Below are positions 32,456 through 45,337 of a DNA stretch of 64,000 nucleotides, in pieces (position 1 is the first letter of the stretch; every line of letters starts with the position of its first letter). This DNA comes from Candidatus Acidiferrales bacterium (GTDB lineage: Bacteria > Acidobacteriota > Terriglobia > Acidiferrales > UBA7541), in the NCBI GenBank assembly GCA_963776365.1, contig CAVZMQ010000004.1:2054-66053 (forward strand). The letters are read 5' to 3'. A program made the translations under genes and the position numbers. A model generated the notes under the pieces. That model worked only from the letters and a program-made list of their open reading frames with translations, was not told where the DNA came from and did no database searches.

Positions 32456-33508
32456 GTGGAGTACTTCAACAAAGTCGTACGGTCCAACCACGGTGTCACC
32501 TTCCGCGAGCAAGCGATTACTTGGCTAGCACAAATGCAGGATCGTAAACGTAAGCCCGTGGCTCCTTCGACGCTTGGTATTTGGGAAAGTGCGTTGAGAA
32601 ACTGGCTCAATCCAAACATCGGAGACATTCCGCTTGAATCCATCGGCAATCTCGCGCTGAAGAATCTTGGTGCAACGATGGTCAAAGGTGGGCTGGGAGC
32701 GTCGGCGATTAGGTCATACACAAACGCGGTGAAAATGGTTGTAGCATCGGCGGTCAATGAAGAAGGGGATGCGCTGTACCCCCGGAAATGGAATCACGAC
32801 TTCATTGATTTACCAGAAGACAAGAAACAAAGACAACCAAACTTCACTTCCGAAGTAGTGACCGGGATCATCGCCGCGTCACAGAAAGAGCAGATGTCGG
32901 TGTTCTATGTACTCTGTGCTGCTGGCGGATTGCGATTTGGAGAAGCCCTGGGGATCGACATCGGAAACATTTCCCCCGACTGCTCAACGATCAAAATTGA
33001 CCAGAAGGCATGGAGGGGCCAGGTACATACCTTCCTGAAGAGTGATGCCGCCAAGCGGGAGATTGACTTGCACTCTACGGTTGCGGCGATCCTCAAGGAG
33101 TGCATCGGCCAGCGGGAGTCTGGACTGTTGTTCTGTTCCAGTACCGGCAAGCAACTCTGGCAGACAAACCTCCTACGTCGGTCCTTGCACCCTATTCTCA
33201 AAGATCTAGGCTGGGAAGATCCTGAGAGTGGATGCAAAAAGACTGGCGCTCATGCCTTCCGACGCTTCCGTTTAACATGGCTTCGGAAGAACGATGTCCC
33301 GAAAGACTTGGAACATTTCTGGATGGGCCACGAGGACGAAGAGATCGGGGACATCTACTCCAAGTTGAAACAGGACGTTGCTTTCCGCAGAAAAGTGGTG
33401 GAAAGGATTGGTTTGGGCTTCGAACTTCCGTCCAAAAAGGTCGTTGTTGGATCGAATGGACCGAAAATCGAAGTTGGTGATGTCGAATTGTTGGCTGTAA
33501 ACGCTTGA
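32456..33508 (+). CDS. Tyrosine integrase; N-terminal arm-binding region decayed
   Basis: GLRFGEALG, HAFRRFR, WMGH, DIYS; the frame extends only ~27 codons upstream before a TGA. Confidence 0.88.
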   Translation: MEYFNKVVRSNHGVTFREQAITWLAQMQDRKRKPVAPSTLGIWESALRNWLNPNIGDIPLESIGNLALKNLGATMVKGGLGASAIRSYTNAVKMVVASAVNEEGDALYPRKWNHDFIDLPEDKKQRQPNFTSEVVTGIIAASQKEQMSVFYVLCAAGGLRFGEALGIDIGNISPDCSTIKIDQKAWRGQVHTFLKSDAAKREIDLHSTVAAILKECIGQRESGLLFCSSTGKQLWQTNLLRRSLHPILKDLGWEDPESGCKKTGAHAFRRFRLTWLRKNDVPKDLEHFWMGHEDEEIGDIYSKLKQDVAFRRKVVERIGLGFELPSKKVVVGSNGPKIEVGDVELLAVNA

Positions 33509-33517
33509 GGGTATAAT
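33488..33517 (+). promoter_or_regulatory. Sigma70-type promoter for tRNA-Ala
   Basis: Perfect TATAAT at 33512-33517, TTGTTG 18 bp upstream within the integrase 3' end. Confidence 0.6.
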
Positions 33518-33530
33518 GGTTACACCGCGT

Positions 33531-33606
33531 GGGCGTGTAGCTCAGCTGGGAGAGCACCTGCTTTGCAAGCAGGGGGTCGCCGGTTCGAACCCGGCCACGT
33601 CCACCA
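33531..33606 (+). tRNA. tRNA-Ala(TGC)
   Basis: 76-nt cloverleaf GGGCGTG/CACGTCC, G3:U70 pair, anticodon stem CCTGC/GCAGG, TTCGAA T-loop, encoded CCA. Confidence 0.97.
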
Positions 33607-33631
33607 ACTTAATTCCCGCTCTCATAACCAG

Positions 33632-34681
33632 TTACGCTGCTTTTTCTGCTGCACTATTTTGGTGCAATTTCGGGACATTCGGTACAACAGTCTCGCTGGC
33701 TTCTGGAAGATTGAAGCCATACCCTACTCGCTCAGCCTCTTTGAGGCGTGTCTCAAGTTCCTCGTGAAGGTGTGAGTAGAGTTCAGACATTGTTTGCGGA
33801 CGGTGTGCCATCCAGAAGTTGTTTATGTCTTCCAGGCAGCGGCCACCCCGCAACCATGTCTTACGGAACCGCTTGAATGCGTGCCAACCCATTCCTTCCT
33901 CATCGAGCCCCATTTCACTGAGGCGAGGCGTAAGCCAGCGGTCCGCCAGATTGCCGTAAAGATGAGGAGTTCCGCTTGCTGTGTGGAACAGGAGCCCCGT
34001 CTTCTCAGCCGTATAACGTCGCAGGTACTCTGCGATGTCTGGATGCAAGTCAATCTGCCTCCTCGCAGCGTCAGTCTTGAGATAACTAACGATACGAGCA
34101 GAATCCTTCTCGACTTGCTGCTCAACCCTTATGGTTTTGAAATCATTCGTGAATTGCCGGGTTCCGACCGCCAACGCTTCAGAAATTCTCATCCCAGTTG
34201 CCGCGAGCAGCACATATAACGCCTGTTCCTGACCGCTGCTAGACAGAATGAGTTCTGAAATTGTGTCCGCTTTGAGCGATGGACGTTTCTGTTCCGAATG
34301 CACTACCACAGGCAAGTCCATTACCTCAGCGTCCCATGTTCTCTTATGGACAGGCTCACCGTTCGGGTGCTTCAACGACTCCACCACCTGTTTAACATGT
34401 TCGATGTACTTGTTTACAGTTCGCGGTTTGAGTTTCGCAGAAGACATTTTGTCAATCAACGGCCTCACCGAGAGATTGTCCACTTGCCCGACAGGAATAT
34501 CGCCAATAGCAGGGAGAATCCATTTGTCCATCGCGCCCTGAATGGAGACTGCATAACTCCGTCGGATGGGCTTGCGTTTGCGGTTTTGCAATTGCTTCAG
34601 CCACACTTCTGATTGTTCACGGAACGTAATCTCACCTGATTTTGGTTGAACAACTTTGTTGAAATATTCAGGAGAGTCCAC
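33632..34681 (-). CDS. Tyrosine integrase related to 32456-33508, 5' truncated
   Basis: EYFNKVV...TFREQ shared with the other integrase; GMRISEAL, HAFKRFR, WMAH, ELYS. Confidence 0.88.
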   Translation of the reverse strand: MDSPEYFNKVVQPKSGEITFREQSEVWLKQLQNRKRKPIRRSYAVSIQGAMDKWILPAIGDIPVGQVDNLSVRPLIDKMSSAKLKPRTVNKYIEHVKQVVESLKHPNGEPVHKRTWDAEVMDLPVVVHSEQKRPSLKADTISELILSSSGQEQALYVLLAATGMRISEALAVGTRQFTNDFKTIRVEQQVEKDSARIVSYLKTDAARRQIDLHPDIAEYLRRYTAEKTGLLFHTASGTPHLYGNLADRWLTPRLSEMGLDEEGMGWHAFKRFRKTWLRGGRCLEDINNFWMAHRPQTMSELYSHLHEELETRLKEAERVGYGFNLPEASETVVPNVPKLHQNSAAEKAA

Positions 34682-35886: not shown

Positions 35887-36038
35887 TCAATTGCACTGGA
35901 AAGGGATAGTAGCAGAAAACATTCTCAACTCCCGATTTGTCGCGTTACCGGACATGTGGCTACCAGAACTTGACCTTACCGGTAAGCGCTAACCGGGACT
36001 TTGGAGCAAAAATATGTTATTCAGGTCACCGGGTAGTG

Positions 36039-36467
36039 ATGGCTGTAGTGCGAGGCTCTATGCAACCGCCCGTTGCCTCCACATCAGTTGGTTTTCCGAC
36101 ATCTTCGCCTGAGAGTCCGCGGATTTCGTGGTTCATGGTCGTTGTGGGCTGCCTCTATTTCATCTCGTTGGCCCTCGGTGCCACCAGAGCAATTCCGCAC
36201 TTTGCCAAGCTGTATGGGGAGGCGGGAGTCGGACTTCCTCTGCTCACCCGTATCTTGCTTTCCTCTCATTTTTGGTTTCTGCCAATGGCGTTCACCGTTG
36301 GTGCGATACTCACTGTCGCAAAGAAACTGGCGGAGTTCAGCAGGCGACAACTTCGTGTCGTCAATATTGTTCTCATCTGCCTTGGAGCCGTTTTGCCCGC
36401 TTTGCTTCTGTGGTTTTTGTGTTCGCCTCTGGTTAGCTTGATTGGAAAACTCGATGGGGCTCACTGA
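36039..36467 (+). CDS. Hypothetical membrane protein
   Basis: Three hydrophobic segments; LP.LTR.LL pattern. Confidence 0.6.
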   Translation: MAVVRGSMQPPVASTSVGFPTSSPESPRISWFMVVVGCLYFISLALGATRAIPHFAKLYGEAGVGLPLLTRILLSSHFWFLPMAFTVGAILTVAKKLAEFSRRQLRVVNIVLICLGAVLPALLLWFLCSPLVSLIGKLDGAH

Positions 36468-36589
36468 CGGGAGAACGAGCGAGTCCTACGCAGTTTGTTC
36501 CAATAACTCCTGGTTTGTCGATTATTACCGGCCAATTCTTTGAATCACACCCGTAAAAGCTGTAGGCGAGAAGGGTTATTCTCTTTCAG

Positions 36590-37204
36590 TTGGATTTTGG
36601 TCAGGAGGAAGGAGCTCCGCTTCCGGCTCAGATCTTGGCAGGTCAAGCCGGGGCAGAGCTCCAAGGAAGTACGATTCTGTTTATCCCACTTTGCGTCCCG
36701 CCTCACAAGCTCGAAACGGATTGGGCCGCGAGCTGCGCCGAAGTCATCTTGCGGCGATGCCCGGTTTGCGAGCGCGATTCGATCATCGGCCATGGACACC
36801 GCCGCAAACAGGCGCACGATGAACACCACGATTGGATCGGGATCCGGCGCGGTTGCTGTCCCGGTTGCAAGAAAACCTTCACCTTTCTCCCGCTGCTTTC
36901 TCTCCCCTACACGCACTACAGTTTGCTGGCACGCTGTCAGGCCTTGTGGCGGCGCTTTGTGGAGCACTGCTCCTGGGAAGAAGCAACGCCTCCGCTCAAA
37001 GACCCTAACCGCGTGCCTGATTCCTCCACACTTCGCCGCTGGGCCCACGGCCTGGACCGCTCCCAACCGGCACTTTCCTTTCTCCATCAAACGCTCGCCT
37101 CCGTAGCTCACTGGCTGGCGCGCGGTGATCCAGCCGATCACCAAGCGGGGCTTTTGTCTCAGCTGACTCCGGTTCTGCAAATTCTCTGGCCCCTGCGTCT
37201 CTGA
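36590..37204 (+). CDS. DUF6431-like zinc-ribbon/HTH protein (start uncertain)
   Basis: CPVC...GHG.R.K...IRRG.CP.C.KTFT.LP....PY..Y; STLRRW. Confidence 0.7.
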   Translation: MDFGQEEGAPLPAQILAGQAGAELQGSTILFIPLCVPPHKLETDWAASCAEVILRRCPVCERDSIIGHGHRRKQAHDEHHDWIGIRRGCCPGCKKTFTFLPLLSLPYTHYSLLARCQALWRRFVEHCSWEEATPPLKDPNRVPDSSTLRRWAHGLDRSQPALSFLHQTLASVAHWLARGDPADHQAGLLSQLTPVLQILWPLRL

Positions 37205-37237
37205 GAAAATTTCTCCAACCACCATCCTTGCCTGGGA

Positions 37238-38278
37238 ATGCTGTCCACCTTCTCCTACGTTGACTTCCAGAGGCAAAACTGCGCCGTGGGCGAGGACGTC
37301 GAAAAACTGAAACAGCGTCTTTCGCTGCTCGATTATCTGCGGCAGCAGAACTGGGTCGCCCGGCCTGCCACTCACGGCCCCGAGTTCGTCGGACTTTGTC
37401 CCCTGCATCCGGAAACCCAGCCTTCGTTCTATGTCAATGCCCACAAAAATCTCTTCTACTGTCACGGTTGCGGCCAGGGCGGCGATCTCATTCGCTTTGT
37501 CCAGTTGTCCCGCCAGCTATCCTTCCGCCAAAGTCTCGCCTACCTCGAGCAGCAAAGCGCTCCTCCCACCGACCCTGCCGCCGTGCTCGAGCAAGCTGCC
37601 ACTTTTTATCAACAGCAACTCGATCGCTACCCCGAGGCACGGCGCTATCTGGAGCAACGAGGACTGCGCGATCCTGTCCTGCTCCAAGAACTGCGGATCG
37701 GGTATGCCCCTGGGGGGAGCTTGCGCCGTCATCTCGCGGCTCGAGGCTACTCTTGCGAGCTCCTACGACGTCTCGGCCTGCTCAATTCGCAGGGTCACGA
37801 TGCCTTCTACCGGCGCGTCATCTTCCCGTGCTGCCAAGGCGGACGCGTCGTCAACCTCTACGGCCGCAGTGTCGCGGCCGCCTTTGCCCATCGATTCCTA
37901 CCCGGCTCCAAGGGCGGCTTGTTCGCCTGGGAATCGGTTCGCCAGTTTCCCGCGGTGATTCTGGTTGAAGGTCTGTTCGATCTTGCGGTGTTGTGGCAGG
38001 CTGGTTTTCGCCACGCCACCTGTTCGTTAGGCACTCATCTCAGCGCTGAACAGTTTCAACAGCTGTGCGATCGTCCACGCACGGTTTATCTCATCTTCGA
38101 TGTCGACGCCAACGGCAGCGGACAACAAGCCTCGCGGCGGCTAGCACCACGTCTGCGCGCACAAGGCATCTCCACTCGTCGCGTCTTCCTGCCCGATGGC
38201 CACGATCCGAACTCCTTCTTCGTCCAGGGCGGTGATGCGGGACAGTTTCAAGCTCTCCTGGAGGCTGCTCCGCCATGA
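37238..38278 (+). CDS. DnaG-like primase (CHC2 zinc finger + TOPRIM), no helicase-binding domain
   Basis: CPLH.ET.PSF...FYCHGC..GGDLI; RRVIFP; LVEGLFD; FDVDANGSG; PDGHDPN. Confidence 0.9.
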   Translation: MLSTFSYVDFQRQNCAVGEDVEKLKQRLSLLDYLRQQNWVARPATHGPEFVGLCPLHPETQPSFYVNAHKNLFYCHGCGQGGDLIRFVQLSRQLSFRQSLAYLEQQSAPPTDPAAVLEQAATFYQQQLDRYPEARRYLEQRGLRDPVLLQELRIGYAPGGSLRRHLAARGYSCELLRRLGLLNSQGHDAFYRRVIFPCCQGGRVVNLYGRSVAAAFAHRFLPGSKGGLFAWESVRQFPAVILVEGLFDLAVLWQAGFRHATCSLGTHLSAEQFQQLCDRPRTVYLIFDVDANGSGQQASRRLAPRLRAQGISTRRVFLPDGHDPNSFFVQGGDAGQFQALLEAAPP

Positions 38279-39321
38279 AGTTCTGCGTGATCTACCAGCA
38301 GACCCCCCACAACGCACATAGTCCAGTTCGTGTCGTCGAGCAGAGCACCGGTCAGGGAGTTGGCTGGATCAATCGTTATCTGGACCGCGAATATGTCCGC
38401 CGCCTAGCGAACACCACCCTGCGCACCTTCGCTTACAACCTGCTGCACTTTGTTCGCTGGTGGGAGAGTGTTCATCACACCGGCGACATCCGGGGAGGTG
38501 ACCTTACCGAGTCCACGCTCCTGGACTATGTGCGCTTCCAGTCCAGCCAACAATCGCGGGGTTCCCCTTCGACCATTAATGACCGCGTGGCCGTCGCCGA
38601 GCGCGCCATCCGCAACGAGTTCCCCAATGCTCCCTGCCAAATCGCCCGCGGTTTTCATCAAGCTTTTTTGCGGCGAACGCCAATGGGGCTCGGCCGGCGG
38701 CAAGTAGCGATGAGTCGGTTGCGAGTGAAAGTGCCCAAACGCAACATCGTGCCACTGTCGGTAGATGAAGTAGCACGCTTCTGGTCCAGTTTCAGCTCTT
38801 CACGGGACTTGGCCATCGTGGGCTTGATGCTATTGCAAGGGCTCCGGTCCGCCGAAGTATTAGCTTTGAATCGCGATGACGCGTTGCTCTCCGAAGCACA
38901 GCTTCGTGTCCGTGGCAAAGGCAATAAATTTCGCTTCCTGCCGCTGGCGCCGGAAACGGTGCAACTACTCGAACACTACCTGCGCCTGGAACGGCCCAAT
39001 CCCTGCTCCGCCGCGCTCTTCGTCTCAATCAAAGGCCACGCGCGCGGACGGCGCATGACCGTTGCGGGATTACGTTCCTTATTCCGCTACCATCGTCAGG
39101 CCACCGGCGTCCAGCTCGCCAATCCGCATCGATTTCGACACACCTTTGCTTCCGACATGATCCGTGCCGGTATGAGTCTGCCCGCGCTCATGCAGTTGAT
39201 GGGTCACGCTGATATCCAAACTACGCTGCTCTACGTGCAGGTCACCCCACAAGACGTCTACCTTCAGTACGCACGTGCCGTGGCACAGCACATCCGCCCC
39301 CTTCCGGTGACCTCCTCATGA
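38275..39321 (+). CDS. Tyrosine recombinase A
   Basis: GLRSAE, VRGKG, HRFRH, LMGH, TLLY; ATGA overlap with the primase. Confidence 0.93.
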   Translation: MKFCVIYQQTPHNAHSPVRVVEQSTGQGVGWINRYLDREYVRRLANTTLRTFAYNLLHFVRWWESVHHTGDIRGGDLTESTLLDYVRFQSSQQSRGSPSTINDRVAVAERAIRNEFPNAPCQIARGFHQAFLRRTPMGLGRRQVAMSRLRVKVPKRNIVPLSVDEVARFWSSFSSSRDLAIVGLMLLQGLRSAEVLALNRDDALLSEAQLRVRGKGNKFRFLPLAPETVQLLEHYLRLERPNPCSAALFVSIKGHARGRRMTVAGLRSLFRYHRQATGVQLANPHRFRHTFASDMIRAGMSLPALMQLMGHADIQTTLLYVQVTPQDVYLQYARAVAQHIRPLPVTSS

Positions 39322-40457
39322 ACCGTGCGCGACGCCCTCCACTGCAACATTCTCTGGCGCCGGTCTTCGACCGCGCCGTCGATTCCCTCAGCACTGCACT
39401 CAACCCCGAAACCACTCGTCACCACCGTGGGACTGCCCGCAACTTTCTGACCTATCTCGGCGCTGATCATCCGGAGGTGCAGCACCTGGACCAGCTACGC
39501 CGTGAACCCCACATCCTCGGTTGGATGTCCTGCCTGCACTCGCAAGCGTCGCCGCTATCAACCGCGTCCTATATCGGCCGGCTTATCGCTCTACGGTCCA
39601 TCTTCAACGAGCTGGCTTGGACCGAACAGCTTTCTGAACTCGCTCATCTGATCCGCCGCGTGGACATTCCGCGGCCGCCGCAAAGACTTCCACGGCCGCT
39701 CACGGCAGAGCAGGATCAACTCCTGCAACAGGAGTTCCGCTTGCGCAATGATCTGGGCGGCAACGTCTTTTTGTTGATTCGCCACACCGGCATGCGTATC
39801 GGTGAGTGTGCCGATCTGTCCTCCGACTGCCTTCGCTCCACCGGCCCAAGTCAATGGGCGATTCATGTGCCGCTCGGCAAACTTAAAACGGAACGTATGG
39901 TCCCCGTAGATCTCTTTGTGTGCGAACTCGTCCAACGCCTCCGCTTCTTTCGTTTTCTTGATCCGCTGCCTGCCGATGGACGGCTCCTGGCTCGTCCGGG
40001 CGCCAAAGACACGCTCCTTCGTCATTTTCGTGATTACTTGCATCAAGTCTGCCATTCACTTGGCCTTTCCACCCGCATCGTCCCACATCAGCTTCGCCAC
40101 ACCTATGCCACGGAGATGCTTCGAGCCGGTGTTGGCTTTCCCGCGGTAATGAAATTACTCGGGCACACCTCTCCCGAGATGACCATGCAATATCTGGATG
40201 TGACGTTGAATGATCTCCAGCGAGCATTCGAGCTGGCTCGCTCAAAACCGCGGCATCTTGTTCCGCAACCCAGGGTCTCGTCTGCCCCACATCGAGAGGG
40301 CCTCGATGGAGTGATCGATTCTTTGCTCGCCGCTCAACATGTACTAGAGATGTTCCGCCGCACGCTGCCAAAAGACACGACTCGCAATCGCCTCAATCGC
40401 CTCTCCAACCGCCTCACCAAAATCCTTATCGAAGCACGCGACCTTGTGACGCCCTGA
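39318..40457 (+). CDS. Tyrosine recombinase B
   Basis: GMRIGE, GKLK, HQLRH, LLGH, TMQY; ATGA overlap with recombinase A. Confidence 0.93.
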   Translation: MNRARRPPLQHSLAPVFDRAVDSLSTALNPETTRHHRGTARNFLTYLGADHPEVQHLDQLRREPHILGWMSCLHSQASPLSTASYIGRLIALRSIFNELAWTEQLSELAHLIRRVDIPRPPQRLPRPLTAEQDQLLQQEFRLRNDLGGNVFLLIRHTGMRIGECADLSSDCLRSTGPSQWAIHVPLGKLKTERMVPVDLFVCELVQRLRFFRFLDPLPADGRLLARPGAKDTLLRHFRDYLHQVCHSLGLSTRIVPHQLRHTYATEMLRAGVGFPAVMKLLGHTSPEMTMQYLDVTLNDLQRAFELARSKPRHLVPQPRVSSAPHREGLDGVIDSLLAAQHVLEMFRRTLPKDTTRNRLNRLSNRLTKILIEARDLVTP

Positions 40458-40636
40458 GAACGGGCAGAGATTGGCCGGTAATGTCGGGTTACCGGAAATG
40501 TTCCCCATAGTACCGGTCTACTTTAAAGGTGAGCGCGCTTACAAGGCACCACAACATTGGACTCCTGACGATATACTGTGGGCAGCTTCCTTCCTTTCTT
40601 GAAACTCATACGTGTTCATGAGCAAAAAGGTGCACG

Positions 40637-41263
40637 ATGGTGGAACCCATCCCACGGTACGAAGTGAGGCAATCGTTGCAAGCCGTAAAGATCGGCATAA
40701 TTTTTGGATTTGTGGCCTGTTTAGCATACCCACTCGCTGTTTTCGGCCATCTACCAAAGCTGGCGACCGTGACGTTGGTGGCGTGCTTCGGTCCTGCCCT
40801 AGGTCTCGCGTGCTACGGCCTCCGCCGACTGCTCGATTGGGAAAGACCGACGATTTCTAGTTCACTGGGTCTGATGTTGAACGCACTTGCGGGCGCACTG
40901 TTTTCCGTCATGGCTTTCGTCCAACTGGCCGTTGGATACTCGGCAAATGGTGACAAAGTCTCGTCGCAATTCGTGGCCATCTGGTTGGGGCTGGATGTAG
41001 CTTGGGATGCCTACATCGGTATCGGAACCGTGTTCTTCGCAGTGGCGATGCTTCGCCATCCGCGCTTTGGGGCAATCTTCACCGTTTTTGGAGTCGGCAT
41101 CGGCGCCGGTTTATTGGTGCTCCATCTTTATTCATTTCCGACTCCGCCGCAGAATGCAGGTCTTATCGACCTCGGTCCAGCGTTGGGCCTTTGGTACTTC
41201 GTCGTTACCATTCAAATGTGGCGCTCCCTTCGTTGGGCAACGCAACATACCCCTACAACCTAG
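40637..41263 (+). CDS. Hypothetical multi-pass membrane protein
   Basis: Six to seven hydrophobic segments. Confidence 0.7.
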   Translation: MVEPIPRYEVRQSLQAVKIGIIFGFVACLAYPLAVFGHLPKLATVTLVACFGPALGLACYGLRRLLDWERPTISSSLGLMLNALAGALFSVMAFVQLAVGYSANGDKVSSQFVAIWLGLDVAWDAYIGIGTVFFAVAMLRHPRFGAIFTVFGVGIGAGLLVLHLYSFPTPPQNAGLIDLGPALGLWYFVVTIQMWRSLRWATQHTPTT

Positions 41264-41462
41264 GTGCCAAAGTTTATCGCGCTGTTCTTGCTCCTGCGTC
41301 TAGGTCCCGGTTAGTCGCCTAATCGGTAAAGTCAAGAGCTGGGAACCAAGTTACCGATTTCGTCGTTTTTACCAGATGGGACCGTTCGGGTGTAGACTCT
41401 GCCGTGTCTTTTGCTAGAAGGTGTTATGTCGAATTCGCTATCTCGGTAAGGGAGCGTGTTGA

Positions 41463-42095
41463 TTGCGGTACATCATTTTGGCTCAAATACTGCTCTCTGC
41501 TTCCGTCACATTCGCCAGCGACATACGTCCTTCCTGCGAGCTTGCGAAAGAAAGCATTTTGAGCCGATCTTCTTCCGGGCTCGCTCAGGTCAGCAATTTG
41601 GGCAGCATCCGCATAACGTGCCGCGTGCCGGCGCGGCCATTCCCGTCCAAACCGGGTGAGAGCCGGAACGGTCTCACAGCGGCGACCACCGCCTATGAAG
41701 TCTTGGCGAGTGGTAGCAGGAAGTCGGTCGCCGCAGAAGTTTACCTTGTTGGCGGCGGCTTCGGACCTGAACCGGAACCGGAACCGGAATGGGTTGATTT
41801 CTATGTACATATTCCACTCGACTCCGAGGAACTTGACACAGAGGTGCGTAGGTATCTCGCTAAGCTCGAAGAGTCGATGACACCAGAGCAAAAAGCACAA
41901 TTCACAGAGGACGCTCGAAAGAAGGCACTTGAGAATCTTCGAGAGGTGGTCTACCAACATCGTGTCGGCCATTTCCAAGTGGAGTGCCGCGTCTTGGATG
42001 GTTCTCGCGTGATGGGTGCGGACGTCGTCGAACTTGAAGTGCTGTTTAAGGGACGCTTCTCTGACATCGGACCGCGCCCGTCTCCCCCAGCCTAG
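41463..42095 (+). CDS. Hypothetical exported protein
   Basis: Signal-peptide-like N-terminus, RBS GGGAG; PEPEPEPE from GAACCG repeats. Confidence 0.65.
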   Translation: MRYIILAQILLSASVTFASDIRPSCELAKESILSRSSSGLAQVSNLGSIRITCRVPARPFPSKPGESRNGLTAATTAYEVLASGSRKSVAAEVYLVGGGFGPEPEPEPEWVDFYVHIPLDSEELDTEVRRYLAKLEESMTPEQKAQFTEDARKKALENLREVVYQHRVGHFQVECRVLDGSRVMGADVVELEVLFKGRFSDIGPRPSPPA

Positions 42096-42325
42096 AAACT
42101 CGCAGCGGAGGGATAAGTCCCGATTGCGTCGCGTTACCGGTAAAGTCCTATAAAAAGGAATGTCAAGAAAAAAGTACTCTCCTTCGGCTCAATGCCGATC
42201 TTTTTTTCTCGGCATTCAGCCCAACTGTTTGGACGTAGGTTTTGCGGCGACTCCGCTGCTGCGGGGTGACGTGGAACAGAATCTTCGACGTCATCACAAC
42301 AGAATCAATGAGACGCTTTGGCTTT

Positions 42326-42751
42326 TCAGGTATCGGTGAACTTGAAACCGTTTGAGCTAAATTGCTCCCCACGAAGAACCGCATCCACGGCAGGCAGTAG
42401 TTCGCGTCCGGCATCTTTCTTACGAACATAACCCAACGCGCCCGTGCCCAAAGCTGCCCGGACGACGTCGAGGTCATTGTTCTGACTTAGGAAGACAATC
42501 TTGGAGCTGGGGGAGCGTTGTCGTATCTGCCGGGCGGCTTCGATTCCATCTAACTTGGGTAGGCCGATGTCCAGCAGAACTAAGTCCGGCTTCAGGTCTT
42601 CGGCCTTCTGAACGGCTTCTAGTCCATCCGACGTTTCAGCGATGACCTGGCAATCTGGGCGCGGCTGAAGCAGCAAACGGACTTGGTATAGCCAAGCCTT
42701 GAAATCGTCAACTACGAGGATGCGAATTGATGACGACAGTTGCTACCCCAT
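42326..42751 (-). CDS. Stand-alone receiver-domain response regulator; TAG at codon 3, so alternative start or pseudogene
   Basis: IRILVVDD, PDLVLLDIGLPKLDG, FLSQ, YVRK motifs. Confidence 0.75.
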
Positions 42752-43060
42752 TTCTATGTATGGAAAAATACGCCGCACGCGGGTTAGTTGCTTGACCTAC
42801 AGTTCTAGTGCGCCCGGACACCAATCGTCAGTGACCCACGCACGCACCAATGTGACCCGTGAGCACACAAATGGAGTGCTGCCCGCGAATCGGCGGCTCT
42901 CAAATCCTGGTAACGGCATTATCGGAAACTCAGCTAATCAGCGGCGCGGTCCGACGTCCACACGCAATTTCGCTTCTACTTCGCTCCCGCTGTGGTGGAC
43001 AGCGAGGCAGCGGGGGCTTAGCATGAAATTTCCCCAGTGTTTCGCTCCAGAGGTTGTGCC

Positions 43061-43357
43061 ATGAGATGTTTAGTTCCTATTCCTATTGAGTTTGTCGATA
43101 CCCTGAAACAGTCTGGAGAAACAGGCATCGGTTACCAAGTGATTTCTGTCGAACTGAAAGACGGCAGGTGCTTTGACCAAGTCCTGGCCAGCGAGGGTTG
43201 CATCATTGAAGTGCGAGGACACAAAGAGATTCCTTTTGGGGCAAAAGATGTGACATCCGTGAGGGTAAATCACAAGCGGTGGAATTTCAGAGGTTGGTCG
43301 GACTCACGCGCCCAGAGAGGGATGTCTTCGCTTGGGCTTTTGATTCTTAGTGCCTGA
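43061..43357 (+). CDS. Small hypothetical protein
   Basis: GAGG RBS, ATG 43061; beta-rich globular pattern (ETGIGYQVISVELKDG). Confidence 0.6.
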   Translation: MRCLVPIPIEFVDTLKQSGETGIGYQVISVELKDGRCFDQVLASEGCIIEVRGHKEIPFGAKDVTSVRVNHKRWNFRGWSDSRAQRGMSSLGLLILSA

Positions 43358-43517
43358 GTAACGCTTACCGTATATCTTGGTACAAACCGCTGCTCATTCG
43401 GTTACCGACGATAGGAGTTGGATTGCGACACCACGCTGGCCGATACTGATTCGGTGGTTCCGACGATGATACTGCCGGGCGGTTTCCTGCATAACAAAAT
43501 CAGACCATAGTTTCAGC

Positions 43518-43940
43518 CTATGGTGGAATTAGAAGAGTCATTATGGTGCCCAGCATGGTCGCGATCAATTTCTCTCGATCCCCATTTATGGCGAATGCGT
43601 CGGCAGCGCACACTGTGAGTGTCTTCCCACGACGCTTGACTTGCGCTTTGGCTGCGAACTTTTGTCCTATCGCCGGCACCAGCAGGCTGACCTTGAATTC
43701 TACGGTCAGGACGTTGCAACCTTCAGGCGCAACGCTGTAGGCAGCGTAACCACACGCTGAGTCCATGATGCTGGCGAGGACACCGGCATGCAAAAAGCCA
43801 TCTTGTTGCGTGTATCTCTGGTTGAACGGCACGCGAATCTCTACTGTCCCCGGCGCGATACAGTCGATTTCAGCGCCGAGCGTGGTCATGAATGCCTGGT
43901 GCCCGAAGCTTTCTCGAACTTTGCTCTCAAATGGCTCCAC
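43518..43940 (-). CDS. PaaI family thioesterase
   Basis: QQDGFLHAGVLASIMDSACG, LTVEFKVSLL hot-dog fold motifs. Confidence 0.92.
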   Translation of the reverse strand: MEPFESKVRESFGHQAFMTTLGAEIDCIAPGTVEIRVPFNQRYTQQDGFLHAGVLASIMDSACGYAAYSVAPEGCNVLTVEFKVSLLVPAIGQKFAAKAQVKRRGKTLTVCAADAFAINGDREKLIATMLGTIMTLLIPP

Positions 43941-44194
43941 AATGCCTCCCGCGGCTTGTTTTGTTGCATTTGGCCCCTGCTCCCTTGCGAGTCTACTAGA
44001 CTTAGACCACTCGATCCGGGTCGTGGCAAGTCTTTACTTTCAGCACGGGCTCCGGCTCTTTTCACAGCGGATTGACAAGCACTTGCGTCGCGAGGGCGCC
44101 TACCCCTTACGTTTTTCCGTAAAAGGTAGGCTTTAGGCTTTTCGTCTTCTCTTTCGTCAGAAGTGCTCCGAATAATGAAGGTCGCGCTCTATTT

Positions 44195-44680
44195 TCAGTT
44201 ATCGTCGGAATCCTTCGCGACGGCGGAAGCGGCGATCCAAGGACCCGGAGCGGAAAGTGTCGCGCCATTCACGCCAGCGACACGGACCAGAATGACGGTG
44301 CCGAAACAAGGAGAAGGAACCTGCAACTTGGAGTGAATCTCCGCGTTGCCTTCTTGACTGAGCGGAAAGGCAGCGCTGGTTACCGCCACAGCGTCCGAGC
44401 ACACGACGCTGGCGGACACCGCAGTGACCGGGCCAGTGTTGCCGGTGCTCGGGAGGATCAACCCGAGTACATCGACGCGCAGGTGGCCGTCATCCGTCAG
44501 GACCGCAAACGCGTGTTTCACCACCCACGGCGCCCCGCCGCTGGCTACCCCGGCGATGGTGATGCCCGGATTCGAACCGAGAACTGGCGCAAAGAAGGCC
44601 AACTCTTCGGCAAACGTATTAATGGCAAACATTCCGGCCACCAAGCAAGTCAGGATTGTTACTGAAAGTGTTTTTTTCAT
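44195..44680 (-). CDS. Hypothetical secreted protein
   Basis: Signal peptide MKKTLSV...TFA; RBS; GVASGGAPWVV. Confidence 0.7.
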   Translation of the reverse strand: MKKTLSVTILTCLVAGMFAINTFAEELAFFAPVLGSNPGITIAGVASGGAPWVVKHAFAVLTDDGHLRVDVLGLILPSTGNTGPVTAVSASVVCSDAVAVTSAAFPLSQEGNAEIHSKLQVPSPCFGTVILVRVAGVNGATLSAPGPWIAASAVAKDSDDN

Positions 44681-45337
44681 TGAGGAATTCCTTTATTTTC
44701 TTGAGATCGCACGAGTTCCAGTTGGGCTCCGCGCGTGAACTGCTGAAATCGGCTTCGAAAACCAAACCCCGAGGGTGGGAAATGATTTAGCTCATAAGCC
44801 GCTCGGGAAGCATAAGGCTTGCTCCGCCATGGGTTGTCTGGAAATTGTCAAAACAATGTCGAGTTTTGAACCGTTCGATGACTTTGCAGCGTTGATGATC
44901 ACGATGTTAGGGTCGGCTTCCATCTCGAACTTGAGGAAATCCTGATGTTTGCCCTAGAGCACAAACAAACCGCCGGTACCCAAGTTACCGGTTTGCCGAA
45001 TCGGGAGTCAGGACACTTTACATTCCTAGCTCTTTACTAGGAAATTCCCATCTGACTTCGGGACACTGAGATTCAGGTATGCGGGTTTCGTCCGAAATCG
45101 CTTTTCATGGAAAACCAGAAAACCATAAGTAATTAACCAACCTCGAGCTGAAATTTCCGAAATCGTATAGCTAACCGCCGAATGTGTGGGTACCGGGCCG
45201 GATTATTTCTCGGGAAGTTTATCTTCAAGCTGACTGGCAAGCGTGTGTATTTCCGTTGTTCTAGTAAATAGCCCGGAGCAGCTTCAAAGCGCGAACTCCC
45301 TCTTTGGCGGGCGCGCAAAATCGTTTCAAATCGTGGA

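Follow-up and report, generated by a model that had tools for sequence, protein, structure and literature searches.

Genes and recombination sites at the locus

The window analyzed here, a 64,000-nucleotide stretch (C4:2054-66053) of a 6.78-Mb, 33-contig metagenome-assembled genome (G000), contains a row of small genes separated by copies of a short recombination site. The close relatives found for this genome are soil Acidobacteriota (Terriglobia, 'Acidoferrales'). Five sites of a first type, all in direct (+) orientation, are located at 35927, 36505 (attL), 40471 (attR), 41302, and 42117 (with one extra base). They delimit three modules with a single open reading frame (ORF) each, termed M1, M3, and M4, and a mobile element of 3,959 bp, termed E1 (36524..40482, + strand). 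E1 is bounded by perfect 13-bp terminal inverted repeats, ATTACCGGCCAAT (36524-36536) and ATTGGCCGGTAAT (40470-40482), and carries four genes on the + strand. The first two, identified by Pfam/NCBIfam, encode a DUF6431 protein (36590-37204) and a DnaG-like primase with Zn-ribbon and Toprim domains (37238-38278). They are followed by the genes of two Xer-like tyrosine recombinases, recombinase A (38275-39321, 348 amino acids [aa]) and recombinase B (39318-40457, 379 aa), which overlap. Alignment to the XerD and XerA structures indicates that both recombinases have kept all catalytic residues (R..K..HxxR..H..Y), and in NCBIfam they give sub-threshold Xer matches only.

The heptamer TTACCGG/CCGGTAA, described in the initial annotation of this DNA as a recurring spacer motif between unrelated genes, is the conserved arm of a quasi-palindromic core site of about 30 bp, AACTCCyGrTww-GTCGss-TwACCGGAmA. 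In this site, two mutually inverted arms of 11-12 bp, the A arm (CCyGrTwA) and the B arm (TwACCGG), enclose a spacer of 6-7 bp (GTCGss). When E1 and its spacer are removed from the targets of the element, the rebuilt site of about 30 bp reads AAnTCCcGgtTa-GTCG-gcTAAcCGGAAat, which is identical in sequence and spacing to the free motif copies at 35927, 41302, and 42117. The identity of this sequence as a lox/dif-like core site for tyrosine recombinases, as well as its use by E1, is well established. Site S1 (35927..35958, +; AACTCCCGATTT-GTCGCG-TTACCGGACATGTG) reaches 36.3 bits, the top score in the genome with a 32-nt position-weight matrix (PWM) of the site. Site S3 (41302..41333, +; AGGTCCCGGTTA-GTCGCC-TAATCGGTAAAGTC) scores 30.2 bits, and site S4 (42115..42148, +; AAGTCCCGATTGC-GTCGCG-TTACCGGTAAAGTC) is the copy with one extra base. 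The remaining two first-type sites are the junctions of E1. Its attL (36505..36536, +) joins the target A arm AACTCCTGGTTT to the element spacer GTCGATT and the left repeat, and its attR (40471..40502, +) joins the right repeat to the target spacer GTCGGG and the target B arm TTACCGGAAATGTT.

Counted above the null maximum, about 21 PWM sites occur in the 6.78-Mb genome, and 4 to 5 of them lie inside 6.2 kb here. The heptamer itself is ordinary genome-wide (1,004 copies, 9.5 per 64 kb). Exact TTACCGG matches on both strands number 13 in the window, versus 4.7 expected from shuffles, and nine of these, all intergenic, fall at seven places from 35,945 to 44,991: 35945, 35976/35979 (palindrome TTACCGGTAA), 36525, 40475, 40489, 42134/42137 (palindrome), and 44985. 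Per 9.08-kb window, the genome mean is 1.33, compared to 8 to 9 in the region from 35.9 to 45.0 kb. The motif thus lies far over the genomic background by both PWM scan and density, as the clustering reported in the initial annotation implied. The sole denser locus, and the densest of the genome, is C15:82207-84199, where nine tandem 249-bp coding repeats contain TTACCGG in each unit; as a coding tandem repeat unrelated to the recombination sites, it was ruled out as a second site cluster. The positions originally listed for the motif hold as exact matches at the seven places given above. The others, 41323, 41350, 41443, 43365, and 43401, are one-off variants (TAATCGG, TTACCGA, CTCGGTAA, CTTACCGT, and GGTTACCGA), four of which are degenerate arms of the same site family, while 41443 is doubtful. 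Both longer recurring blocks that had been pointed out are real: CCCGATT..GTCGCGTTACCGG at 35931 and 42119 represents two first-type sites, and CCAAGTTACCG at 41346 and 44980 represents inverted-arm copies.

Past most first-type sites, at a distance of 5-25 nt, lies an inverted second site (consensus cTTGtCCGGTaACGGCGTTTATCgGGAgTT), whose spacer is CGGCGT. This succession of a first-type and an inverted second-type site was found in 26 composites, which are 60-90 nt long and have the arm order A, B, B', A'. In the window, clear composites are located at 35927-36002 and 41302-41383 and degenerate ones at 40471-40552 and 43349-43422, and they are absent after 42117. The inverted second half of composite 1 (35974..36002, -; CCTTACCGGTAAGCGCTAACCGGGACTTT, with the palindrome TTACCGGTAA inside) folds against S1 with z = -1.96, and that of composite 3 (41346..41383, -; CCAAGTTACCGATTTCGTCGTTTTTACCAGATGGGACC) is a near-match to the right flank of E1 copies L018 and L021. 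As single-stranded DNA, the composites show moderate folding, with z values from -1.2 to -6.4 for five array composites from relatives and from +0.3 to -2.0 for four window sequences. No half-to-half covariation was detected in 25 composites, where 65.3% of cells pair versus 68.5% in shuffles, and a folded, attC-like hairpin was dropped as the preferred form of the site for lack of this covariation. Given pairing no better than in shuffles and no covariation, the composite is read, from its sequence, as two independent double-stranded sites in inverted orientation, arranged as around Acinetobacter dif modules. The analogy to pdif modules drawn in the initial annotation is borne out to this extent, since the second site that follows most sites places the modules between sites of alternating orientation. 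Both site classes coincide with homology breakpoints.

Copies of E1 and their junctions

The ends of E1 occur about 27 times in the same genome. A second full copy, 84% identical, is located at C9:6892-10878, and the derivatives comprise one 640-bp deletion form and about eight copies of 245-257 bp that resemble miniature inverted-repeat transposable elements (MITEs). The 13-bp repeats also confirm the earlier observation that the element carries the TTACCGG core at its ends and sits against a site. A search with recombinase A returned 436 relatives in reference genomes; in the best 80 of these, which were fetched, the length and ends of E1 are conserved. The DNA flanking the copies is patterned, and its variable positions differ per copy, which marks the flank as target DNA and not element DNA.

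Junctions were compared among the 42 E1 copies with both ends recovered. Each of the 42 copies, all in other genomes, is inserted in a different variant of the same site. The left-junction 7-mer is nearly constant, being GTCGATT in 24 of the 42 and GCCGTTT or GCCCATT in subfamilies, and the right-junction 7-mer takes more than 20 forms. In every copy, the first three nucleotides are equal on the left and the right, and they co-vary by subfamily (GTC in 28 copies, GCC in 13, and GAC in 1). After integration, E1 thus retains its own spacer at attL, attR has that of the target, and the two spacers have their first 3-4 bases in common. Such an arrangement would be expected if one strand were exchanged at the GTCG edge and replication then ensued. 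If the ends of E1 were joined, the product would be ATTGGCCGGTAAT-GTCGATT-ATTACCGGCCAAT, a loxP/FRT-type site with a 13-7-13 layout.

Subfamilies of E1 (L009, L016, L020, L036, L045-L049, L059-L072, and C9:6913-10874) have variant ends, ATTAGCGGCCAAT, or a variant right end, CCGGTTAA. They carry GCCG or GCCC spacers and, with respect to the asymmetric target, are inserted the other way round, which suggests that the spacer sequence sets both target choice and orientation. At three further loci (C1:94187, C8:118942, and C9:670), the left 60 nt of E1 and a near-identical target A arm are followed by divergent sequence. These loci may represent a related element with another interior or an assembly-collapsed repeat at contig ends. 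For a distant E1 homologue on C24, whose recombinase is 51% identical, no terminal inverted repeats were found; two direct sites with a GTCC spacer (C24:3550 and C24:12193), 8.6 kb apart, surround it.

Compared to a background of about 3 per Mb, free sites are frequent in the flanks of E1 copies elsewhere. Copy L001 has five further free sites in its flanks, all oriented like the element. The best plasmid matches to the E1 recombinases are Rhodococcus recombinase pairs, with 33-38% identity.

Cassette breakpoints

M1, M3, and M4 were followed into other genomes of the genus or family by means of protein searches; none of the three ORFs has a Pfam match. Cassette M1 (35991..36518, +) contains a small membrane-protein ORF (ATG at 36039, to 36467) and has an A-type arm at both ends. 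Window positions 35991-36518 recur in genome G465 (L119) at 92% identity, and positions 35993-36510 recur in G357 (L120) at 82%. The shared block begins at the A' arm of a second-type site and ends within the following first-type site, of which it includes the A arm and the initial spacer bases. This following site is intact in G465, where a different cassette comes after it, and the neighbors of M1 in both genomes are unrelated.

Cassette M3 (40475..41306, +) encodes a 208-aa membrane protein (40637-41263) and includes a degenerate second half site at approximately 40522-40552. It has homologues in 5 of 259 other congeneric genomes. In G206, window positions 40475-41306 are matched at 91% identity, and the upstream DNA is unrelated. 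The G206 block starts in an intact site, AACTCCCGGTTA-GTCGGG-TTACCGGAAAGGTT, and breaks off within the opening bases of the next one. At the position that E1 occupies in the window, G206 (L114 7759) has an orthologous, uninterrupted site, AACTCCCGGTTAGTCGGGTTACCGGAAAGGTT. G206 and the window thus represent a matched empty/occupied pair of one site, joined to the same M3.

Cassette M4 (41380..42096, +; 210-aa ORF at 41463-42095) was found in 1 of 300 other family genomes. In that genome, G352 (L113 9635-10352), window positions 41380-42096 are matched at 77% identity. The block is immediately preceded by a second-type half site (9601), and a first-type site (10386) lies 34 nt past its end; no other homology to the window was detected within 20 kb. 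The fourth case is a 115-bp unit (42131..42245, +) with a terminator-like hairpin (42184-42198), which starts exactly at the B arm of S4. It recurs in the same genome at C33:4079-4193 (99% identical) and, in part, at C26:1548-1580. Identity starts at GTTACCGG, and the A arm and spacer differ at all three loci.

These four independent breakpoint cases support mobility of cassettes at the sites. In addition, the sites do not mark a conserved gene order, which the initial annotation had named as the sign of transcription factor sites: 40 relatives yielded no DNA match to M3 or M4, and the homologues retrieved by protein search lie in unrelated contexts, in blocks of which at least one end falls at a site or next to it.

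Site arrays in related genomes

Scanning of the pattern CCYGNNNNGTCGNNWWAYCGGA over 31 genomes of the genus, with the reversed pattern as a control, yielded 92 matches versus 2 for the control; 10 of the 31 genomes have no match. Neighboring sites less than 10 kb apart are on the same strand in 24 of 29 pairs. The largest runs comprise 14 sites across 18 kb, all on the - strand (G001:C10), nine sites on one strand (G001:C2), and three + sites followed by five - sites (G010:C7), at a spacing of mostly 0.35-1.5 kb. Within arrays, the orientation of the ORFs is mixed, and site orientation is uniform even there. Eight array ORFs have no Pfam match, which is typical cassette cargo, and four larger ones encode a PQQ dehydrogenase, a MacB-type permease, an FAD-binding protein, and a formamidase-family protein. 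The arrays are bordered by housekeeping genes. The G001 array is located on a 24.0-kb island between the DAHP synthase gene and a conserved 402-aa ORF; at the same locus, G010 has 204 bp and no site, and 11 other congeneric genomes are also without the island.

An insertion sequence (IS) of the IS110 family, 1.5 kb long and encoding a DEDD transposase, is present in G010 36 nt after a first-type site (L095 4113-5585). A 99% identical copy in a second array (L096 12571-14046) abuts a weak site (14.7 bits) of unclear orientation. This placement recalls the IS1111-attC elements, which target integron sites.

The region past 42.1 kb and the genomic setting

The cassette array had initially been drawn to 45.0 kb and described as unrelated single ORFs in both orientations. 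Its last part, from 42.1 to 45.0 kb, is less clearly cassette structured, and only there is gene orientation mixed. From 35.9 to 42.1 kb, all genes are on the + strand, and one of the supposed single-gene cassettes is the four-gene E1. The 3-kb segment at 42247..45269 encodes, according to Pfam, a response regulator (42326-42676, -), an ORF (43037-43357, +), a 4HBT thioesterase (43518-43940, -), and a secreted-type ORF (44195-44680, -). A degenerate composite at 43349..43422 (+; AGTGCCTGAGTAACGCTTACCGTATATCTTG ... CATTCGGTTACCGACGATAGGAGTTGG), which covers positions 43365 and 43401, was recognized by comparison to the consensus and is tentative, as it scores below the PWM thresholds. A variant site, GACTCCCGATT-CGGCAA-ACCGGTAACTTGG (44980..45009, -), is also part of a terminator-like hairpin, and akin variants with a CGGC spacer are found at C7:5889 and C7:7936.

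A 100% identical duplicate of the 3-kb segment is present at C21:11057-15287, with an additional 1.2-kb insertion in the response-regulator gene (at 42619-42623 of the window). The left end of the duplicate runs into a small Cys-rich ORF, of which the window has a truncated form. It is either a strain variant or a recent duplication. The response-regulator family (window 42247-42755) has ten copies in the genome, including those in the window and on C21, and eight of them are diverged (78-88% DNA identity). The copies elsewhere are located on C1 (two), C2 (two), C8, C12, C18, C19, and C21, and the family is multicopy in relatives too. When this family was considered as a possible recurrent cassette, only 4 to 5 of its ten copies were located less than 1.5 kb from a site. 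Upstream, a tRNA-Ala(TGC) gene (33531-33606) is located between two convergent integrase genes (32456-34681). The cassette region begins 2.3 kb downstream of this tRNA gene, which makes the whole stretch a tRNA-linked hypervariable zone.

Proposed mechanism and alternative explanations

The explanation that we consider likely overall is that the sites are tyrosine-recombinase sites bounding cassettes in arrays, of which E1 is an autonomous member. E1 inserts between the two arms, A and B, of an array site, presumably with one strand exchanged at the GTCG edge of the spacer and replication thereafter. The primase could provide the priming for this replicative step, and such replication would explain copy numbers that reach eight or more in a genome. 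Recombinases capable of bringing the E1 site together with an array site should be able to do the same with two array sites. Acting in trans, they could excise and re-insert cassettes and the MITE-like derivatives of about 250 bp, and arrays would grow by accretion. The whole looks like an undescribed, integron-like gene-collecting system in soil Acidobacteriota.

A further-reaching proposal, which is possible and which we put forward tentatively, is that of a third, independent gene-capture system. It would combine heterospecific lox-like site pairs with a driver that encodes two recombinases and a primase, mobilizes cassettes in trans, and leaves arrays devoid of a recombinase. Promoterless or unannotated single-gene cassettes would lie between the paired heterospecific sites. 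The cassette-sized driver would enter arrays, mobilize the residents by single-strand exchange and primase-dependent replication, move between genomes, and in this way leave arrays without a recombinase behind.

Several results weigh against the explanation considered likely here. With a cutoff of E <= 1e-60, homologues of recombinase A are present in only 4 of the 31 congeneric genomes. The site-rich genomes G001 (20 sites), G010 (13 sites), G003, G020, and G023 have only two to three Xer-like recombinases of about 320 aa, with 30-36% identity. Co-occurrence of the E1 recombinases with sites was accordingly negative, which weakens E1 as the driver. There is no recombinase within 7-8 kb of the G001 or G010 arrays, and all-against-all BLAST inside arrays revealed no recurrent gene family or hidden recombinase, only IS copies. 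In addition, the spacers of first-type and second-type sites differ, which a simple conservative model leaves unexplained, and the M3 homologues in G516, G420, and G418 have no detectable site nearby. All genomes compared are metagenome assembled, one per species, so that they show presence or absence of whole islands and not gain or loss at the strain level. Site-rich genomes without E1 imply that arrays persist, and may be built, without this element, and another enzyme may serve the arrays there. Of the recombinase-driven cassette array originally suggested, the array is supported by the comparison, whereas recombinases A and B are only possible drivers, being missing from the genomes richest in sites.

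Host XerC/XerD might serve the sites, as proposed for Acinetobacter dif modules, and E1 would then be a parasite that targets them. This is consistent with arrays being largest where only housekeeping Xer-like recombinases occur, with the 11-6-11-like layout of the site, and with the alternating orientation of sites around gene modules, as in dif modules (PMC6449649, PMC13141974). A candidate dif, the genome's only strong match to the classical dif consensus, is located at C20:393603-393630 and reads GCGTCCCATAA-GCTATA-TTATGTTAACT (GCGTCCCATAAGCTATATTATGTTAACT). The site as the host dif itself was rejected, as this classical candidate lies elsewhere and is different. The A arm agrees with the XerC-side arm of the candidate at 7 of 11 positions (GCGTCCCATAA versus ACTCCCGATAA), but the B arm, TwACCGGAmA, is unlike its XerD arm, TTATGTTAACT, and this combination leaves the host Xer model possible, not favored. 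Moreover, a third of the genus (10 of 31 genomes) lacks any site, though XerCD is presumably encoded by all, and the ends of E1 carry the same CCGGTAA arm, so that the E1 recombinases must bind such arms. We therefore regard service by the host enzymes as unlikely.

The sites could also be a repetitive extragenic palindromic (REP)-like or regulatory palindrome (an operator, terminator, or RNA element) that serves E1 as a landing pad, with a coincidental cassette pattern. They are indeed intergenic imperfect palindromes, and the copy at 44973-44991 is terminator-like. Several insertion-sequence families target REP elements, and the IS110-family element 36 nt past a site in one G010 array, with its 99% identical copy in the second array, could be counted here as well. 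REP elements and bacterial interspersed mosaic elements (BIMEs), however, are present in hundreds of copies through the core intergenic regions of every strain, in contrast to the roughly 21 sites in 6.78 Mb found here and to their absence from a third of the congeneric genomes. The arrays examined, in the window and on the G001 island, are on accessory islands missing in relatives. Site orientation is uniform despite mixed ORF orientation, and homology blocks break at the site spacers. Promoter and terminator consensus scans and Rfam returned nothing at the sites except the hairpin at 44973-44991; this hairpin aside, a promoter, a terminator, or a known RNA was rejected as the identity of the site. 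A REP-like or regulatory origin is hence improbable.

A canonical integron cassette array minus its integrase (CALIN), in which the composites are divergent attC sites, would account for same-strand arrays of mostly unannotated single-ORF cassettes and for 60-90-nt composites whose arms A, B, B', A' mimic the R''-L''...L'-R' order of attC, but is highly improbable, as the core sequences RYYYAAC/GTTRRRY are missing from the consensus AACTCCCGATAAGTCGCGTAACCGGA...TCCGGTTACGGCGTTTATCGGGAGTT, the halves pair no better than in shuffles and do not covary, the observed crossover separates the A arm of the first half from its B arm and does not lie in an outer R' box, no recombinase lies beside the arrays, and recombinases A and B score 55.9 and 34.3 bits on the integron-integrase model TIGR02249 (cutoff, 265).

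Comparison to known systems

Integrons are the textbook device for stockpiling and shuffling single genes in bacteria. To our knowledge, few integron analogues are known, among them dif modules and rAID-1 clusters, and their mechanisms are poorly understood. No published description of E1 or of these arrays was found in the literature searched. The system offers advantages for study, including a sharply defined site, matched empty and occupied versions, traceable cassette breakpoints, and an autonomous element that is abundant and has junctions indicative of single-strand exchange and replication. The 13-7-13 site and the two small recombinases might become a new recombination tool, and the system would help explain how uncultured soil Acidobacteriota acquire accessory genes.

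The arrays described here resemble integrons and CALINs in that their sites are directly oriented (five on the + strand in the window and 14 on one strand in G001) and enclose short cassettes, most of them with a single ORF, whose functions are unknown. Other common features are arrays without an adjacent recombinase, species-specific site sequences, and a junction asymmetry suggestive of single-strand exchange with replicative resolution. CALINs persist without IntI, as the arrays here persist without E1. In contrast to integrons, there is no IntI, attI, Pc, or attC consensus and no evidence of a site that acts as a folded single strand, and a canonical integron was rejected for want of IntI and the attC consensus. 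The cassette ORFs are not co-oriented with the sites, and the recombinases ride on a cassette-sized element with its own primase.

The dif modules of Acinetobacter likewise have arm-spacer-arm sites of about 28-30 bp and modules between alternating sites, which are shuffled between replicons by a mechanism of movement that is unresolved (PMC6449649, PMC13141974, PMC11705084). Their pdif sites are targeted by insertion sequences (PMC10132070). The corresponding alternation is seen here in the 26 composites and in M1 and M4, whose left boundary is a second-type site and whose right boundary is a site of the first type. However, the Acinetobacter modules are plasmid borne and have dif-like sites, whereas the arrays here are chromosomal, their site is unlike the host dif on the XerD side, a dedicated recombinase pair is encoded by an element, and every second "module" is a mere 5-25-nt loop.

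In the rAID-1 clusters of Bacteroidales, a non-IntI recombinase of the XerD family heads integron-like arrays of accessory genes (bioRxiv 10.1101/471110). Both systems have accessory-gene arrays split by repetitive, integron-like intergenic sequences. The fixed 5' recombinase, co-directional genes, and immunity cargo of rAID-1 were not seen here, where array ends lack a recombinase and ORF orientation is mixed.

E1 itself works most like Tn554-related elements and SEs. As in these, its two tyrosine-recombinase genes overlap, are likely coupled, and encode full catalytic motifs (RHRY); terminal inverted repeats in the range of 13-19 bp and strict target specificity without target duplication are also shared. 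Another common trait is that one junction holds a 6-7-bp spacer brought by the element and the other keeps that of the target. A comparable asymmetry, in which attR is the junction that holds the spacer of the element, has been documented in SEs and reported in Tn554-related elements (PMC10214605). A further likeness is multicopy spread, which implies a copy-out step. E1 differs in the size of its recombinases, neither of which is of the ~600-aa TnpB/IntB type, in its DnaG-like primase and DUF6431 protein in place of TnpC, Srap, or Tfp, and in its targets, a site family in cassette arrays. The likeness described here is one of layout; the sequence matches obtained for E1 were generic Xer-family proteins and the Rhodococcus pairs. 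How tyrosine-recombinase elements of the Tn554/SE type copy themselves is still debated as a question, and the primase of E1 suggests a way in which they could do so.

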